From Squalus acanthias (lineage: Eukaryota), in NCBI GenBank assembly GCA_030390025.1, contig CM059438.1, positions 73,160,001-73,224,000 of the forward strand: a DNA stretch of 64,000 nt. Direction: 5' to 3'. The translations under genes and the position numbers were made by a program. Shown here piece after piece: positions 12,727 through 61,850 of the stretch; the stretch's first letter is position 1; every line of letters begins with the position of its first letter. The notes below the pieces were generated by a model. The model was not told the origin of the DNA, searched no databases, and was given only the letters and a program-made list of their open reading frames with translations.

Positions 12727-12943
12727 CTGTTTCTCCATCAGCATGTCTGCTGGGAGACCTCTCAAGTGATCGTTGTTTTTTCTCTTTTTTCCGATGGCAG
12801 CGATGCTGATGATGGTGGTGATGATGCGGCATTCGTTCCGGGATAATGCGCTCCAGAGAGTAATCGGGCAGATGCATTCCGTGAGATCGCTGTGGTGTCA
12901 GCGTAGACACAGAACGCTTCATTGGGCTTGTGTCTGGGATTGG
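12727..12943 (-). CDS. CACNA1B: CACNA1B exon 44 (poly-His region), 217 nt
   Basis: TTTTGTGTAG|CCA acceptor; PIPDTSPMKRSVSTLTPQRSHGMHLPDYSLERIIPERMPHHHHHHQHRCHRKKEKKQRSLERSPSRHADGET(G); G|GTAACA donor. Confidence 0.95.
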
Positions 12944-13319: not shown

Positions 13320-13692
13320 AGGAACATTAGGAAGAGGAGTAGGCCATTCAGCCCCTCGGGCCTGCTCTGCCATCCAATGAGATCATGGCTGATCTGCGCC
13401 GCAACTCCATTTTCCCGCCTTTGCTCCATATCTCTTGATACCCTTACCTAACAAATATCTATCTATCTCATTCTTCTCCGCTCCAATTGTCCTAGCATCC
13501 ACAGCCTTTTGGGGGAGAGAGTTCCAAATTTCTACTACCCTATGTGTGCAAAAGGTGCTTCCTGATTTTGCTCCTGAGTGGGCTAGATCTAATTTTAAGA
13601 TTATGTACCTTATTCTCGATTCCCCCACCAGAGGAGATAGTTTCTCCATATCTAGACTATCAAAGGCTTTTAACATTTTAAACACCTTGAAC
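13320..13692 (-). mobile_element. CR1 LINE 3' fragment
   Basis: ORF remnant VFKMLKAFD...HRVVEIWNSLPQKAV...GKWS and CR1 3' tail GGCTGAATGGCCTACTCCT. Confidence 0.85.
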
Positions 13693-14576
13693 ACCTGCAT
13701 TTATTTATGATGTATCTTCACAAAGCAAAGCAAGGAAATCACCTTCACAGGGCGGAATGATGTGGTATATGGTAATGGCCTCTACTGGCTACCTGGTTCT
13801 AAATATTGCTTCTAAATATTGGACAACACTCGATCCCTGGGAATCCAAAACACCTCAAACCACGTGAACTGGGTTAACAATGAAGTTTAGCATTTCATCC
13901 TTCTGATCGGTCAGATATGTAAATCAGCATAACACAATATTTAGTGCCTATCAGATGCAGCCTAGATATTTACTTTGGTCTCGGTGTTTTTTTTAAACAA
14001 TTTTTAACTACTCTTGAAAGGTTTTTTTGTACTGTACACCCAAATATCATTACTGTAGCAAATATTTCATGCACTGGTATTGTCCCAGGAATGCACCTCA
14101 CAAACATACTAATGGTCTTTTTACGTGGTCCACTTACACTATTATTAGAATAAATCAACCCATTGTTTAACTAACAGAAATAGTCATCAACAAGGAAGAT
14201 TGAGGCTCAGACTAAACTGATGCATTGTAAACTAGGCCATGATTTCTATGCATAATCTGCATTTTGCAGTTTATATAAACTTGTTGATTTTTATGACCAA
14301 GACATTTCTTGATAGCACATTTTACACTAGCCTGTTCCACTGTATTTTGCTTATCTCTGGTTACTGATAACGTTATAATGTATTCATTAACATATCATTC
14401 ATGAACGCATCCTAGAAAGCTCAATTAACCAATAATTGCTAGTTTAAGATGGACCTAGGAAGCATATAAATGTTACATTGAAGAATATGCAGACATAATA
14501 CAAAGTTAAAATAGTTCTTATACTAGTGTTAAAGACCCCAGCACGCTCAGATAATTCACTGCCTGCACAAATGCAT

Positions 14577-15783
14577 CATAGAATCATAGAAAGTTACAGC
14601 ACGGAGGAGGTCATTTCGGCCCATCGTGTCCGTGCCAGCCAACAAAGAGCTATCCAGCCTAATCCCACTTCCCAGCTCTTGGTCTGTAGCCCTGCAGGTT
14701 AGAGCATCCCAAGTGCACATCCAAGTACTTTTTAAATGTGGTTAGGGTTTCTGCATCTACCACCCTTTCAGGCAGTGAGTTCCAGACCCCCACAACCCTC
14801 TGGGTTAAGAAATTTCCCCTCAAATCCCCTCTAAACCTTCCCCCAATTACTTTAAATCTGTGCCCCCTGGTTTTTGACCCCTCTGCTAAGGGAAATAGGT
14901 CCTTTCTATACACATTATCTATGCCCCTCATAATTTTATACACCTCAATAAGGTCTCCCCTCAGGCTCCTCTGTTCCAAGGAAAACAGACCCAGCCTATC
15001 CAGTCTTTCCTCATAGCTAAGATTCTCTACTCCCGGCAACATCCTTGTAAATCTCCTCTGTACCCTCTCTAGTGCAATCACATCTTTCCTGTAATGTGGT
15101 GACCAGAACTGCACGCAGTACTCCAGCTGAGGCCTAACTAGTGTTTTATACAGTTGAAGCATAACCCCCCTGCTCTTGTATTCTGTGTTACGGCTAATAA
15201 AGGCAAGCATTCCGTATGCCTTCTTAACCACCTTATCTACTTGGCCTGCTACCTTCAGGTATCTGTGGACATGCACTCCAAGGTCCCTTTGTTCCTCTAC
15301 ACTACTCAGTGTCCTACCATTTAATGTGTATTCCCTTTCCTTGTTAGCCCTCCCCAAATGCATTACCTCACACTTCTCCAGCTTGAATTCCATTTGCCAC
15401 TGTTCTGCCCACCTGACCAATTTATTGATATCTTCCTGCAGTCTACAGCTTCCTTCTTCAGTATCAACCACACAGCCGATTTTAGTATCATCTGCAAACT
15501 TCTTAATCATACCCCCTATATTCAAGTCAAGATTGTTGATATATACCACAAAAAGCAAGGGACCTAGTACTGAGCCCTGCGGAACCCCACTGGAAACAGC
15601 CTTCCAGTCACAAAAACACCCATCAACCATTACCCTCTGCTTCCTGTCTCCGAGCCAGTTTTGAATCCAACTTGACACTTTGCCCTGGATCCCATGGGCT
15701 TTTAACTTCGTGACCAGTCTGCCATGTGGAACCTTATCAAAAGCCTTGCTAAAGTCCATATATACTACATCAAACGCACTACC
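14577..15783 (-). mobile_element. 5'-truncated CR1 LINE with an open 366-aa RT C-terminal ORF
   Basis: DFSKAFDKVPH, GVPQGSVLGP and FADDTK RT motifs; (ATTCTATG)-type tail. Confidence 0.95.
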
Positions 15784-16272
15784 GCATTCTAAAGGAACTT
15801 TTTCACAAGTAACAATGGTGAGATTTTCCCACTATGGGCACATTCATTCTGGGTACAATCTTGAGTGTTCTCAAATGCTGTGTACACTGAATGTAGTGTT
15901 ACAAATTAGTGATCATTTCTTATTTCAGGCTCATAAATTAGGATTCGTAGCCACGTGTACAATCGTGTTAATAAATACAATAAATGGAGGACAAGCGTGG
16001 TGGCAGTTCTCTTTAAGATGTAGCAGGTTCCCAGTGGCACAGTTACAAGTTTCCCAAACTCAACGCACATGTCAGGAGGAGGAACCTCCACCAGTACTCA
16101 AAGCTTGAAACTCAGCTACAGGACTGGATCATACGCCAAGTTGAAATGACCTCCAGCATTCTCAACATCACAAGTGTAAGTGGGGCTTCATTTCAACGAA
16201 CGTGTAGGAAAATGCATAAAGATCAAAAGACTGAAGCAACGAAATAATGTAGACATAATATGAGTTACATAC

Positions 16273-16305
16273 TGCAAGGATACTCCCAGATGATCGAGAT
16301 GTTTT
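16273..16305 (-). CDS. CACNA1B: Candidate 33-nt in-frame alternative microexon of CACNA1B (KTSRSSGSILA)
   Basis: CCTTGCTGAAG| acceptor is the first AG after a ~365-nt AG-free zone; GCA|GTATGT donor; phase 0/0, no stop; same position as the CACNA1A alternative exon 44. Confidence 0.75.
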
Positions 16306-17854
16306 CTTCAGCAAGGGGTCGAGTAAGATGACACAGACAAGTGAAGCAGCCCATAGCACAGCAATTTGCAGACAACAGGGTAGGGAGGGGTTAGGGAGGG
16401 TTGGACGGGTAGAAACAGAGAAAAAGCAAAGCAAGACAGAACACCAGATATATTTATAAAAGCAAAATGGATCAACCAGAAAGTCAGAACAAAAAGTAGA
16501 TATCGGGAAAGTTACAGTGATAATGGAGAAAGGTTGATGGGAGAATAAAACAGAACAGAGAAAAGAAAATTGAGTGAAAGAAGAAGTCGGATTGAGAAAT
16601 GGTGGGCAGGATTGACAAGGCAAATGGAGGTTGGGGTGGAAAGACAAAGCACAAAACATTATGAAATGTTACTGCAGTTGAGCTCAAAATAACAAGCAAT
16701 TGCAAGTTTTCTTTTGGTTACATCAAATGATTTTTACCAGGCTAGATGAGGCAAGAAGCAACAGATACTGTGATTAAAAGCTGACAGTTTAAACCACAAA
16801 AACAACAAACACTCCCAATCAGAATGAATGATATCCAGGGCATTATTAAGCAATGGTATTACTCGGAGACAGAAATGTATACTGGTTAAAAACTTCAGTG
16901 CAATGGTTAGATATTGAAAAAGCAACAACACTTGAAAAGACCAGTTACTTAAGAAAGCATAAAACATTGATCGCTGATAAATACACTGGACACGAGAATG
17001 GGCTTCACCACAAGTAGAAGAGTGAAGTGAACTTTTATCTTTTGGAAGAGGCTTATACCTAGTGGTTTGCAGAGGTTAAATGAAGATTTATGAATGAATT
17101 TGGTTCTTTTTGACTTAATTTCTACTGTCTCATTACCTCTAATTTCAGATTTCAGTTCAACTCCATACTTGTCAAGTTAACTTACATAAACACTCGATGC
17201 TATGTTTTGAGGTGGCTTTCAGCAAATTAACTATAGCTGCCGAAATAGGAGTTCTTTATTAAGCTGCTAATAAATCATTTCTTGGATTGTAAACATTTCC
17301 AGTGGATTAGCGGTGTTATACTATTGTAAAAAGAGCTGTATTATTCAAATTTACCTCAAAATGATTTAGTGATAATATGGAAGCAAAAGTAACATTAAAG
17401 GCTAAACTAATTTTGTTTTGTAAAGGTGGCCAACAGCACTTTGTAAGAAACAAAGTCTGACTGATGATAATAAATAAGACTGAGGGCAGTGAGCAAGCCT
17501 TATATTGTTCATAAATCGAACGTACAATTAACTATTTAGAAGTCCTTGCCCTCAGGTTGTGGTGAAAGAGGCTTCCAATATAATCTTCACAAAGTCCATA
17601 CCTTTTTCTTTGGCCAGTCATAGTCTTTCTCTTATATATTTAATATTGTCTCTTCTCATATGCTTCCACCGCCACCCCCCCACTCCGCAATAGACTTGTC
17701 TCAATCACATGGCATTTTGTGACCACCTTGCCTCTGTTCAGCATCCCTCCAAGTAGGGATTGTGAGCTCAGCGCCTGCATCGAACCACTCCAAGCACATT
17801 GGCATTATTTGAAACCTTAATATTCGCTTCCGTTTTTCTTTGCAAATCCCTTAC

Positions 17855-17962
17855 CTGGATCTCTGCAGTCAGTCGAGGCATTGAAGCTGCACGTCCGTGG
17901 CTCTCCAGGCCTGGCTGATCGGCGTGATTCACATCATACCCTATCTCTCTCATCTCCACAGC
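17855..17962 (-). CDS. CACNA1B: CACNA1B exon 43, 108 nt
   Basis: TTGCACAG|GCT acceptor; AVEMREIGYDVNHADQPGLESHGRAASMPRLTAEIQ; CAG|GTAAGG donor. Confidence 0.95.
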
Positions 17963-20631: not shown

Positions 20632-23600
20632 ATAAGAACACAATAAATAGGAGCAGGATTAGGCCATACGGCCCCTCGAGTCTGCTCCGCCATTCAATAA
20701 GATCATAACTGATCATCGACCTCAACTCCACTTTCCCGCCCGATCTCCATATCCCTTGATTCCCCTAGAGTCCAAAAATCTATCTATCTCAGCCTTGAAT
20801 ATGCTCAAAGACTCAGCATTCACAGCCCTCTGGGGCAGAGAATCCCAAAGATTCACAACCCTCCGAGTGAAGAAATTCCTCCTCATCTCAGTCTTAAATG
20901 GCCTACCCCTTATCCTGAGACTATGCCCCCTAGTTCTAGACACTCCAGCCAAGGAAAACAACCTCTCAGCATCTACCCTGTCAATCTCCTTCAGAATCTT
21001 GTATGTTTCAATGAGATCACCTCTTATTCTTCTAAACTCCAGAGAGTATCGGCCCATTCTACACAATCTCTCATCATAGGACAGCCCTCTCATCCCAGGA
21101 ATCAATCTATCAATCAATCTTTGTTGCACTGCCTCCAAGGCAAGTATATCCTTCCTTAGATAAGGAGACCAAAACTATGCAACTATGCACAGTACTCCAG
21201 GTGTGGTCTCAGCAAGGCCCTGTACAATTGTAGCAAGACCTCCTTATTCTTATACTTCAACCCCCTTGCAATAAAGGCCAACATGCCATTTGCCTTCCTT
21301 ATTGCTTGCTGTACCTGCATGCTAGATTTCTGTTTTTCTTGCATGAGGACACCCAAATCTCTCTGAACACCAACATTTGAAAGTTTCTCACCATTTAAAA
21401 ATATTCTGTTTTTCTATTCTTCCTATTTCCCTACATTACACACCATCTACCACCTTACTGCCTCCTCACAATTAATCTATCTATATTCCTTCGCAAACAC
21501 TTTGTGTTCTCCTCACAGCTTACTGTCCCACCTAGCTTTGTATCGTCAGAAAACTTGGATACATTACACTCGGTCCCTTCATCTCGGTCATTAATATAGA
21601 TTGTAAATAGCTGAGGACCCAACACTGATCCTTGCGGCACCCTACTAGTTACAGCCTGCCAACCTGAAAAAGATCTGTTTATCCCTACTCTCTGTTTTCT
21701 GTCTGTTAACCAATCCTCTATCCATGCTACTGTATTACCCCAACCCCATGAGCCCTAATCTTGTGTAATAACCTTTTATGTGGCACCTTATTGAATGCCT
21801 TTTGGAAATCCAAATATACTACATCCACTGGTACTCCTTTATCTACCCTGCTAGTTACATCCTCAAAAAACTCGAATAAATTTGTTAAACATTATTTCCC
21901 TTTCATAAAACCATGTTGACTCTGCCTAATCATGTTATGATTTTCTAAGTGCCCTGATACCATGTCCTTAACAATGGATTCCAGCATTTTCCTGACGACT
22001 GATGTCAGGCTAACTGGCCTGCAGTTCCCTGTTTTCTCTCTCCCTCCTTTCTTGAATAACGGTGTTACATTTGCGACCTTCCAATCCGCTGGGACCGTTC
22101 TAGAATCCAGGGAATTTTGGAAGATCAAAACCAATGCATCCACTATCTCTTCAGCCACCTCTTTTAGAACCCTAGGATGTAGGCCATCGGGTCCAGGGGA
22201 TTTGTCGGCTTTTAGTCCCATTAGTTTCTTTATACTTTTTCTTTACTTATATTAATTACATTAAGTTCCTCACCCTTATTAGACCCTTGGTTCCCCACCA
22301 TTTTTGATAAGCTTTTTGTGTCTTCTACTGTGAAGACAGATACAACATATTTGTTTAAGGTTTCTGCCATTTTCTTATTCCCCATAATAATTTCTCCTCT
22401 CTCAGCCTCTAAGGACCAATGTTTACTTTTGCTACTCTCTTCCTTTTTACATACTTGTAGAAGCTCTTACAATCTGCTTTTATATTTCTTGCTAGTTTTC
22501 TCTCATTCTAGTTTTCTCTCATTCTATTTTTTCCCTTTTTATCAATTTTTTGGTCATCCTTTGCTGGTTTCTGAAACTCTCCCAATCCTCAGGCTTACTA
22601 CTATTCTTCACAACATTATAAGCTTCTTCTTTCAATCTAATAGCCCTAACTTCTTTAGTTAGCCACAGTTGGATCACTTTTCCTGTGGAGTTTTTGTTTC
22701 TCAATGGAATGTATTTTTGTTGAGAATTATGAAATATTTCTTTAAATACTAGCCACTGCCATACCTTTTAATCTATTTTTCCAATCTACCTTAGCCAACT
22801 CTCCCCTCATACCTATGTAATTGGCTTCATTTAAGTTCAAGACTCTAGTTTCGGACTGAGGCAAGTCACTCTCAAACTTAATGTGAAATTCTATCATATT
22901 ATGATCACTCTGCCCCAGAGGATCCTTTACTATGAGATTGTCTCATTACATAATACAAGATCTAAAATAACCTGTTCCCTGGTTGGTTCCATGATGTATT
23001 GTTCTAGGAAACTGTCCCAGACTTTGTTACAAGCTCCTACTATTTCTTGATTAATATTTTGTAGCTACTGTTAGAGGGCCTATATACTACTCCTACCAGT
23101 ATTTTCTGCCCCTTGTTATTCCTTATCTCCACCCATACTGATTCTACTTCCTGATCTTCCGAGCCGAGATCCTTTCTCTCTACTGTCCTTATGTCATCCT
23201 TTATCATCAGGGCTACTCCCCCTCCTTTTCCATTCTGCCTGTCTATTCAAAACGTTAAGTACCCTGGAACATTTAGTTCCCAACCTTGGTCACCTTGCAA
23301 CCACGTCTCTGTAATGGCTATTAGATCAATCGCATTTATCTCTATTTGTGCCACTAGTTCATCTATCTTGTTACAAATGCTTCGTGCATTCAGGTAAAGA
23401 GCCTTTAATTTAAATTTTTTACCATTATTCCCTGCTTTGACCTTATTCTCTGCTACACTGCCACCGTTAAACTCTCTATCCCTTCCTGTCACACTCTGCT
23501 TATTTTTACCCAAATCGCTACACTGCTCTATTGTCTTGACCTTTCTCTTTAGATTTCTAAATTTCCCCTCACCTGACCCCTCACCCACCTTTTTGTTTTA

Positions 23601-24130
23601 GTTTAAAGCCCTATCTACAACCCTAGTTATTCGATTCTCCAGGACACTGGTCCCAGCCTGGTTTAAGTGGAGCCCGTCCCAATGGAACAGCTCCCTCTTT
23701 CCTCAGTACTGGTGCCAGTGCCCCATGAATCAAAACCCATTTCTCCCACACCAATCTTTGAGCCACGCATTTAACTCTCTGATCTGCTTGACTCTATGCC
23801 AATTTGCGCGTGGCTCAGGTAGTAATCCAGAGATTATTACCCTTGAGGTTCTGCTTATTAATTTAGACCCTAGCTCCTCAAACCCCCTCAGCAGAACCTC
23901 ATTCTTGGTTCTACTTATGTCGTTGGTTCCTACATGGGCCACGACAACTGGATCCTCCCCCTCCCACTCCAAGTTCTTCTCCAGCCGCGAGGAGATATCC
24001 TTAACCCTGGCACCGGGCAGGCAACACAGCCTTCCGGACTCTCTTTCACGGCTGCAGAGAACAGTATTATCCCCCTGACTATACTGTCCCCTACTACTAC
24101 CACATTCCTTCCTTCTCCCCCATCTTCAAT
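20632..24130 (-). mobile_element. Near full-length degraded CR1 LINE (ORF1 esterase-like, APE endonuclease, RT)
   Basis: VVVGDSIVRG and VAHVGTNDI (SGNH-like ORF1); LYLNARSI..IAITETWL (APE); KSPGPDG, PQGSVLGP, FSDDTK (RT); many frameshifts. Confidence 0.95.
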
Positions 24131-59314: not shown

Positions 59315-60757
59315 ATAAAAACAGAAAATGCTGGAAATACTCAGCAGGTCAGGCAGCATCTGTGGAGAGAGAAACAGAGTTAACGTTTCAGGTCGATGAC
59401 CCTTCGTCAGCACTGGAAAAAGCTGGAATTCGAACAGGTTTTTAAGCAAGTGCAGGGGCAAGGAAAGAGGGGAGGGGAGGAAAGAACAAAAGGCAAGGTC
59501 TGTGATAGGATGGAAGGCAGGAGATATTAAGAGAGATTAAGAGACATTAAGAGATGGTGCAAGGCAAAAGGAGATGGTAATGGGACAAGTTAAGAAACAA
59601 AAGATGGCTCTAGAAAAAAAAATAGGGGCAGAGGTTATGGTCTGAAATTGTTGAACTCTATGTTGAGTCCAGAAGGCTGTAAAGTGCCGAATCGAAAGAT
59701 AAGGTGCTGTTCCTCGAGCTTCATTGAAACAGTGTAAGAGGCCAAAGAAGGTGAAGTCTGAGTGGGAGTGGAGCGGAGAATTAAAGTGACAGGCGACCGG
59801 AAGCTCGGGGTCACCCTTACGGACTGAACGGAGGTGTTCCGCAAAGCGGTCCCCCAATCTGCGTTTGGTCTCCCCAATGTAGAGGAGACCGCATCGTGAG
59901 CAGCGAATACAGTATACTAAATTGCAAGTAGTACAAGTAAATTGCTGTTTCACCTGGAAGGAGTGTTTGGGGCCCTGGACAGTGGGAAAGGTGGAGGTAA
60001 AAGGACATGTCTTGCATCTCCTGCGCTTGCATGGGAAGGTGCCGGGCGAAGGGGAAGGGGTGTTGGGGGTGATAGAGGAGTGGACCAGGGTGTCGCGGAG
60101 GGAGCGGTCCCTTCGGAATGCTGAAAGGGGAGGTGAGGGGAAGATGTGTTTGGTGGTGGGATCACGCTGGAGGTGGCGGAAGATGATCCGTTGAATGTGG
60201 AGGCTGGTGGGGTGAAAGGTGTGGACAAGGGGAACCCTATCGTGGTTCCGGGAGGGAGGGGAAGGGGTGAGAGCAGAAGTGTGGGAGATAGAATGGATAC
60301 GGTCGAGGGCCGTGTCAACCACAGTAGAGGGAAATCCTCGGTTGAGGAAAAAGGAAGATATGTCGGAAGCACTGGTATGGAAGGTGGCATCATCAGTGCA
60401 GATGCGGAAGAGACTGACAAACTGGGAGAATGGAATTGAGTCTTTACAGGAAGCGGGGTGGGAGGAAGTGTAGTCCAGGTAGCTGTGGGGGTCAGTGGGC
60501 TTGAAGTGAACGTTTGTCAAGAGCCTATCCCCAGAGATGGAGACAGAGAAGTCGAGGAAGGGAAGGGAAGAGTCGAAGATGGACCATGTGAAGGTGAGGG
60601 AAGGGTGGAAATTGGAAGCAAAGTGAATGAAATTTTTTAGTTCAGGGCGAGAGCAGGAAACAGCACCGATACAGTCATCAATGTACTGGAAAAAGTGGTG
60701 AGGGAGGAGACCCGAGTAGGATTGGAACAAAGAATGTTCCACATATCCCACGAAAAG
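59315..60757 (-). mobile_element. 5'-truncated Penelope-like retroelement (RT C-terminus plus GIY-YIG endonuclease), 7-bp TSD
   Basis: 404-aa ORF with YIDD, CKRRRCKTC and LVYCIRCSRCGLLYIGET; frameshifted end EEQHLIFRFGTLQPSGLN; ACTTGTG at 59308-59314 and 60758-60764. Confidence 0.95.
59378..59414 (-). ncRNA. Minimal hammerhead ribozyme-like motif in the Penelope terminus
   Basis: CUGACGA-AGGGUC AUC GACCU-GAAACGUU core on the minus strand. Confidence 0.6.
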
Positions 60758-61850
60758 ACTTGTGCATTGTTATGACATTCTTTTGTCCACTATTTCAGCA
60801 GAGACATGAATCAGTTTAAAATAAAAAGATGCACCTCCTTTAAAATAATGGATAAAGGAATGTCGGACGAACGCACTGTTCATATGCTAATGTGACAATC
60901 ATCAATTCCTAGGCTATAGTTTTTGCTTAATTTCCCTTGGATTGTCAATGTGGGAATGGGCATCAAAAAATTGACACATACTGTCAGAGGAGCCCATTAA
61001 AGGGCTGTTAGCATTTTTCTTTTAATGGTCTCTAATTTAATCATTTCAATTTTGTAAAGGTTATGCAATCTTGGCAATCAGTCACAAAACACAGGACTGC
61101 GGATGACATTTGTTTTTTTTTAAATTTATAACCTCTACCAAAATATCTGACTTGCATGTTTCCTAAGCCAAGCAGGGAAACTAGCAGGTAATGGTCTAAT
61201 TTAAATTTTACGTTTAAAGCTGTTTTGAATCATTCTATTTCAGTTTCACTAACGAATGTAATAAACGTGATGTCAGTGGCAACACCTAGAGCTTTCGAGC
61301 ATAATTCTGTCATCAATGCAGCAGGCAAAATGGCTACTCTAGAAATTGGACGCAGCTGGCTGAGAATTTCATTAAATTATATTCGACATGAAATATTTTT
61401 GTGTCAGCTTATTTTTCCTGTTCTGTTTTGAATGCTCTCGTTTCTGCCATGAAAAGCTGCCATTCTGCCAAAGGATGTCTGTTGTTCATCAATGTTGTTG
61501 CATTTGAGACTTGCGCTGTGATTGCATGGTAAGGACACGCAATTCTTGAGAATCCAACTCTAGACTTTAACATTTCTGCTCGGATCCTGAGGTAGGTTGT
61601 GGCGGCTTGGTTTTGCTTCTCTTGTCTGGTGTGAAAACAATTGCAATCTGCTACAATTTGCTAAACTGTCAGTTAGATAAATTCTGCCCTTGCTTTTCCC
61701 AATGTATTGGGGATCATTTTGACTTTGGGTAGTCGGGTAAAGCGGGACCGATAGCTAACGGGTTGCTGAATCGATATTGCCCATTTTACACTATCATCCA
61801 ACTTCAAAATGACCCCCAATGAGCTTCTGATGCCAGCCAGGCCAGCTAGG

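Follow-up and report, generated by a model that had tools for sequence, protein, structure and literature searches.

A probable cassette exon of 33 nt behind a long AG-free zone in the CACNA1B gene of Squalus acanthias, and its counterpart in CACNA1A

An intron in the part of CACNA1B that encodes the C-terminal tail raises the question, in Squalus acanthias, of whether it holds a short exon of its own, and if so whether that exon is old and still in use. The window (the whole stretch of DNA analysed, 64 kb in length) carries the gene on its minus strand, and a protein search with the last exon gives CACNA1B proteins as the best matches, the top one being from Chiloscyllium punctatum (83%), in agreement with the identity assigned by an earlier sequence-only reading. 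That reading had also proposed a 33-nt exon encoding KTSRSSGSILA. The exon sits in frame in a 4,911-nt intron of the Cav2 gene, with the SMPRL exon on one side and the SPMKRS exon on the other, and the following features are present.

17855..17962, minus strand: upstream constitutive CACNA1B exon, ending ...RLTAEIQ in phase 0, with donor CAG/GTAAGG; covered whole by the spliced contigs X5 and X6.
16308..16671, minus strand: AG-free zone of 364 nt, 73% pyrimidine, from an AG scan; single copy in the genome.
16483..16489, minus strand: candidate distant branch point TTCTGAC, with its A at -179; full YNYURAY match.
16390..16396, minus strand: candidate branch point CCCTAAC, with its A (16391) at -86; full YNYURAY match.
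16311..16313, minus strand: UGC at -8 to -6, a possible SRRM3/4 element; one of 11 TGC in the zone.
16309..16311, minus strand: CTG, the presumed former acceptor, at the position of the CAG acceptor in the CACNA1A paralog.
16306..16308, minus strand: AAG, the first AG past the zone and presumed working acceptor; stands in the alignment opposite the AGG that opens CACNA1A exon 44.
16273..16305, minus strand: probable 33-nt cassette exon, KTSRSSGSILA, from reading frame and homology.
16267..16272, minus strand: donor GTATGT after the 33-nt exon, a hexamer identical to the donor after CACNA1A exon 44 in this genome.
12727..12943, minus strand: downstream constitutive CACNA1B exon, starting PIPDTSP...; mapped flank.

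Translation of the minus strand shows the 33-nt exon to be open in frame, with no stop. The preceding exon has its end at 17855, in phase 0, and the following one begins at 12943, so a length of 33 nt leaves the frame intact; the earlier proposal of an in-frame 33-mer followed by GTATGT is thus upheld. The 60 nt before the AAG acceptor are 63% pyrimidine, which is a weak tract, and the donor has five of nine consensus letters compared to eight and seven in the neighbouring exons. There are 240 open candidates of the form AG-(3n, up to 60 nt)-GT in the host intron, a number that would favour the reading that the AG...GT pair is fortuitous, follows a pyrimidine-rich stretch by chance and plays no part in splicing.

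Several other elements of the window are recorded here. Tandem similar exons at 49053-48956 and 48537-48440 (minus strand) both match one Cav2.2 stretch and are presumably the mutually exclusive 37a/37b pair, the second of them with a 139-nt AG gap ahead of its acceptor. At the last exon (6706-6479, minus strand) two AG gaps of 111 nt follow one another, and 5 nt past its acceptor comes another AG (TAG GGCAG) that would change the reading frame if used; the last exon of Cav2.1 has a choice between acceptors 5 nt apart. LINE-like reverse-transcriptase fragments lie between the 33-nt exon and the downstream exon, at 13330-13700 and 14575-15830, where thousands of run contigs fall, and more are found at about 20700-24100 and 59540-60770.

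Ahead of the 33-nt exon, the AG at 16673-16672 (minus strand) is followed by the next one at 16307-16306, and this AG-to-AG gap of 366 nt is the longest on both strands of the 64 kb, the runners-up being 161 nt (minus) and 155 nt (plus). The AG-free, pyrimidine-rich zone described in the sequence-only reading from 16671 down to 16308 is therefore real. Shuffling its bases gives an AG-free order in 15 of 20,000 trials, with a mean of 6.5 AG per shuffle, and the AG gaps at the 12 other mapped CACNA1B acceptors range from 6 to 139 nt. The zone occurs once in the genome and contains no tandem array apart from one weak 26-nt repeat (16377-16402). A YNYURAY scan of the zone finds full matches only at -179 and at -86, the latter being the CCCTAAC already recognized at 16390-16396, and one-mismatch candidates at -364 and -354, close to the 5' end of the zone, where a distant-branch-point exon would be expected to branch. 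The 20 nt downstream of CCCTAAC are 85% pyrimidine, and the zone is much longer than a branch point at -86 needs. In raw counts, TTCT occurs 13 times and TCTT six times in the zone, where the window's rates for the same length are 2.3 and 2.1; both motifs are linked to PTB.

PMC1431707 connects zones of this size with branch points far from the acceptor, with scanning for the first AG and with cassette splicing; it describes exons with distant branch points as enriched for cassettes, with zones that can be conserved in the absence of alignable sequence and regulation by PTB in the tested cases. The zone seen here exceeds the 150 nt that mark an AG exclusion zone of such an exon, and it is not due to a repeat. 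Its AG gap of 366 nt compares with zones of 381 nt for PTBP1 exon 11 and 287 nt for GABBR1 exon 23 (PMC1431707), and the shark exon resembles this class in its pyrimidine richness, its probable cassette behaviour and a zone length kept without sequence. The main text of this source (Gooding et al. 2006) makes no mention of CACNA1 and attributes one 369-nt zone to a repeat, which lends the chance-pair reading a second argument.

The relationship with CACNA1A bears on both the origin of the exon and the chance-pair reading. In human Cav2.1 (PDB 8x90) the junction contains an additional 12 residues, which human Cav2.2 (7mix) and Cav2.3 (7xlq) lack; a 36-nt CACNA1A exon 44 at the matching position, as stated in the sequence-only reading, is supported, as is the direct joining of the flanks in Cav2.2, for the human chain 7mix. 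The downstream exon has two further matches in the shark genome, one CACNA1A-like (G000:C22) and one CACNA1E-like (G000:C2783). In the CACNA1A paralog, RRKVRNRGNNLS is present 5.3 kb upstream of the downstream-exon match, with a 358-nt AG gap ahead of it (75% pyrimidine) and the donor GTATGT after it. It is identical at 11 of 12 residues to chick Cav2.1 exon 44, RRKVRPRGNNLS, which is alternatively spliced (PMC5958201). The 14 kb above CACNA1A exon 44 did not reveal the exon that precedes it. In L004:5684-6082 (G000:C22, minus strand), the acceptor of this CACNA1A exon is doubled, TAG CAG, so that one more Gln might be encoded (39 versus 36 nt).

When an 81-nt piece around CACNA1A exon 44 is compared with both strands of the whole window, its best gap-free match is the 33-nt exon, in register, with a score of 42/81 against an intron mean of 20.2 (SD 3.9). 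The two exons share a junction in the C-terminal tail, phase 0, the residues R, G and L in the order R..G..L, the GTATGT donor and an AG gap of about 360 nt. They differ in that the shark exon is a paralog rather than an ortholog of exon 44, has 33 rather than 36 nt, and is serine-rich rather than arginine-rich, with two basic residues versus five and without the RR motif of the chick Cav2.1 exon. The zones themselves align with a score of 52, not above chance (shuffle maximum 56, n=300), and have no branch-point positions in common; the TGC of the CACNA1A paralog is at -14. The 1,745-nt intron of the CACNA1E-like paralog has no such exon or zone, its longest AG gap being 109 nt and its best insert-like window being without splice sites. 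An AG gap of 323 nt lies upstream in the same CACNA1E-like gene (L007:5156-5479, minus strand).

A broader view comes from CACNA1B proteins of other vertebrates, with counts that rest on database gene models. Of 141 proteins, 32 have a related insert of 12-13 residues (11 bird, one bowfin and 20 teleost, with one teleost model shortened), 56 skip it, two have unrelated residues and 51 are uninformative. A further 104 bird and reptile proteins, among the matches listed, comprise 40 with the insert, 37 that skip it and 27 with unrelated letters, although this second set is biased because the query itself contained the insert; its carriers include birds (chicken among them), crocodilians, turtles and tuatara. 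Forms with and without the insert are annotated for single species, among them Pelodiscus sinensis and Motacilla alba. A chicken Cav2.2 insert, which the sequence-only reading had mentioned, does exist (database protein P0164). The description of the exon as hidden and kept in the shark was overstated, since homologous inserts are annotated in birds, crocodilians, turtles, tuatara and bony fish, and it is neither hidden nor shark-specific. Compared with the annotated insert (for example chicken UniRef100_A0A8V1AJW1, Amia XP_066568568.1), the shark exon has the matching gene and junction but starts one codon later and has S-S where most inserts of birds and fish have S-P.

Models from turtles and from some birds (P0194-P0201, P0205-P0208, P0213 and others) carry a different 13-residue insert at the same junction that starts with V and is apparently the upstream exon extended through a later donor; 29 proteins with V-starting inserts were excluded from the counts of homologous inserts. 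None of 45 mammalian proteins includes the insert, 27 skip it and 18 are uninformative, and a loss in mammals is suggested rather than established because the models are mostly partial. Protein searches, two of them with queries limited to 2,000 residues, found no shark protein with the insert. The shark motif is in none of 143 additional representatives, and the best 120 of 636 matches to an insert-bearing query are all birds and reptiles. The one named shark protein recovered, Chiloscyllium punctatum CACNA1B (P0001), is of the skip form. No paper describing the Cav2.2 exon, or the AG-free zone that both paralogs have, was found in the open-licence literature.

The annotated inserts also locate the exon. 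Among 4,878 windows of 33 nt in the intron, scored against five 12-residue inserts (bird, turtle, tuatara, bowfin and teleost), the window at 16305 is the best with 20.4, the next having 14.2, and it is bordered by AAG and GTATGT; KTSRSSGSILA is identical to the bird insert at six of 11 residues. Peptide and DNA homology thus both land on the exact 33-mer, while the zone is shared by the paralog and is single-copy, so that in spite of the 240 candidates and the repeat-derived precedent the chance-pair reading is largely refuted and is very improbable. The earlier suggestion of an ancestral Cav2 exon gains support from this combination of peptide homology, DNA homology and a paralog with a shared layout. 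Judged from sequence, the 33 nt appear to be an actual ancestral cassette-type exon, and an origin that predates the separation of CACNA1A and CACNA1B is supported.

The aligned register shows CAG/AGG in CACNA1A and CTG AAG/ in CACNA1B. We infer that the old CAG acceptor was lost to CTG in this lineage and that the next codon, AAG, would have supplied the new AG in its place, which would account for 11 codons rather than 12. A different possibility is use of the exon at the ancestral length of 36 nt, KKTSRSSGSILA. This would take a rare TG acceptor one codon ahead of the AG, or else an A at 16310, where the T would be an allele or an assembly error. The longer frame is open and its K falls under the first R of all homologues; TG acceptors adjoining an AG exist but are rare, and first-AG scanning predicts AAG, such that we give this possibility little weight.

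Whether the exon is spliced in at all is addressed by contigs from seven (X1-X6 and X8) of ten candidate RNA runs, none recorded as RNA, which were taken as RNA by guess, with a joined junction read as spliced; the ranking of runs was driven largely by repeats because the query contained LINE-like repeats. No contig covers 16273-16305, and four of the runs bridge the junction at depth 3-4, with the tissue not recorded. The skip junction 17855-12943 is direct in X5 (29 letters of the 12943 exon) and X6 (nine letters), whose loose ends were matched to that exon by eye, and is inferred from bin depths in X1 and X4; X2, X3 and X8 have no bridge across the junction. The skipped form is present in shark RNA. 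The lack of a contig over the exon says nothing against inclusion, since contigs drop minor forms and the depth is 3-4.

These data invite the reading that the exon is vestigial: its CAG acceptor was lost in the lineage, it is no longer or barely spliced in, and the zone is a remnant. CTG does stand where CAG was, skip junctions alone are seen in the contigs, the Chiloscyllium punctatum gene model skips the exon, and the insert is missing in all 27 informative mammalian proteins, so that loss seems possible in vertebrates. However, a replacement AG is present exactly one codon on, in frame and with no stop, identity with the bird insert is retained at six of 11 residues, and the zone remains AG-free where its own bases predict 6.5 AG. 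We consider a vestigial exon unlikely, though it deserves more weight than the 36-nt reading or the chance-pair reading. The 33-nt exon is probably a working cassette in Squalus acanthias. There is good reason to regard it as the shark form of the optional CACNA1B exon, which has a common origin with CACNA1A exon 44, and it is likely included in part of the transcripts, probably in neurons.

A plausible mechanism for the working cassette is that the spliceosome would branch far upstream (best at -86 and -179, with weaker sites to -364) and then use the first AG downstream. Because the first AG past the branch point would be used, any AG arising inside the zone would do harm, and this would keep the zone AG-free. 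The long pyrimidine tract is likely bound by PTB-type repressors, giving skipping by default, and inclusion would require a neural activator. The lead candidate, with the chances about evenly balanced, is SRRM3/4 acting at the UGC at -8; the TGC noted earlier just 5' of the acceptor is indeed there, at -8 to -6, and the genome has two loci encoding an SRRM_C domain. The exon is like SRRM3/4 (eMIC) microexons in being short and frame-keeping, with a UGC near the acceptor, a weak 3' end, a set-back candidate branch point and an AG-free zone (bioRxiv 2024.09.17.613571, 2021.02.24.432780). It is unlike them in its length, 33 nt against 6-27 nt in the studied set (bioRxiv 2024.09.17.613571), and in its modest donor, and the same source gives the UGC near the acceptor as a common motif that is not strictly required. 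SRRM3/4 control of the exon is plausible, and 33 nt with a 364-nt zone are a better fit to distant-branch-point exons than to SRRM3/4 microexons.

With the exon included, the cytoplasmic tail would gain a basic spacer rich in serine, which would end five residues ahead of an S-P-M-K site. The added residues would be likely to tune how release-site proteins bind, and not gating. We take the S-P that lies five residues past the junction to be S2013 of Cav2.2. S2013 is tabulated as a Cdk5 site in a review (PMC8609871). Chick Cav2.1 without exon 44 has its vesicle pull-down cut to about 62-66%, through the RR motif (PMC5958201), and this vesicle-capture function does not carry over directly because the shark Cav2.2 insert is without RR.

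The exon is not a new element, since the public annotations of other vertebrates contain it; what is new here is the zone common to both paralogs together with the probable acceptor slip. The comparison makes the exon-44 cassette and the long AG-free zone older than the split between CACNA1A and CACNA1B, and offers a clear example of an acceptor shifted by one codon. It also suggests, in a form open to testing, that a variant of the Cav2.2 tail was lost in mammals; the corresponding Cav2.1 variant has an effect on the capture of synaptic vesicles in vitro. A more far-reaching scenario, which we put forward tentatively and think rather doubtful as a whole, is that exon 44 of Cav2.1 and the matching Cav2.2 exon form an old distant-branch-point pair that has kept zones of about 360 nt since duplication, the Cav2.2 exon being a working neural switch in most vertebrates that outlived the loss of its acceptor in sharks by sliding one codon and was dropped by mammals. 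If true, exon 44 of human CACNA1A would be preceded by an unexamined long intronic zone in which the gain of an AG could upset splicing, and mammal-centred work on the N-type channel would be missing a presynaptic tail variant.
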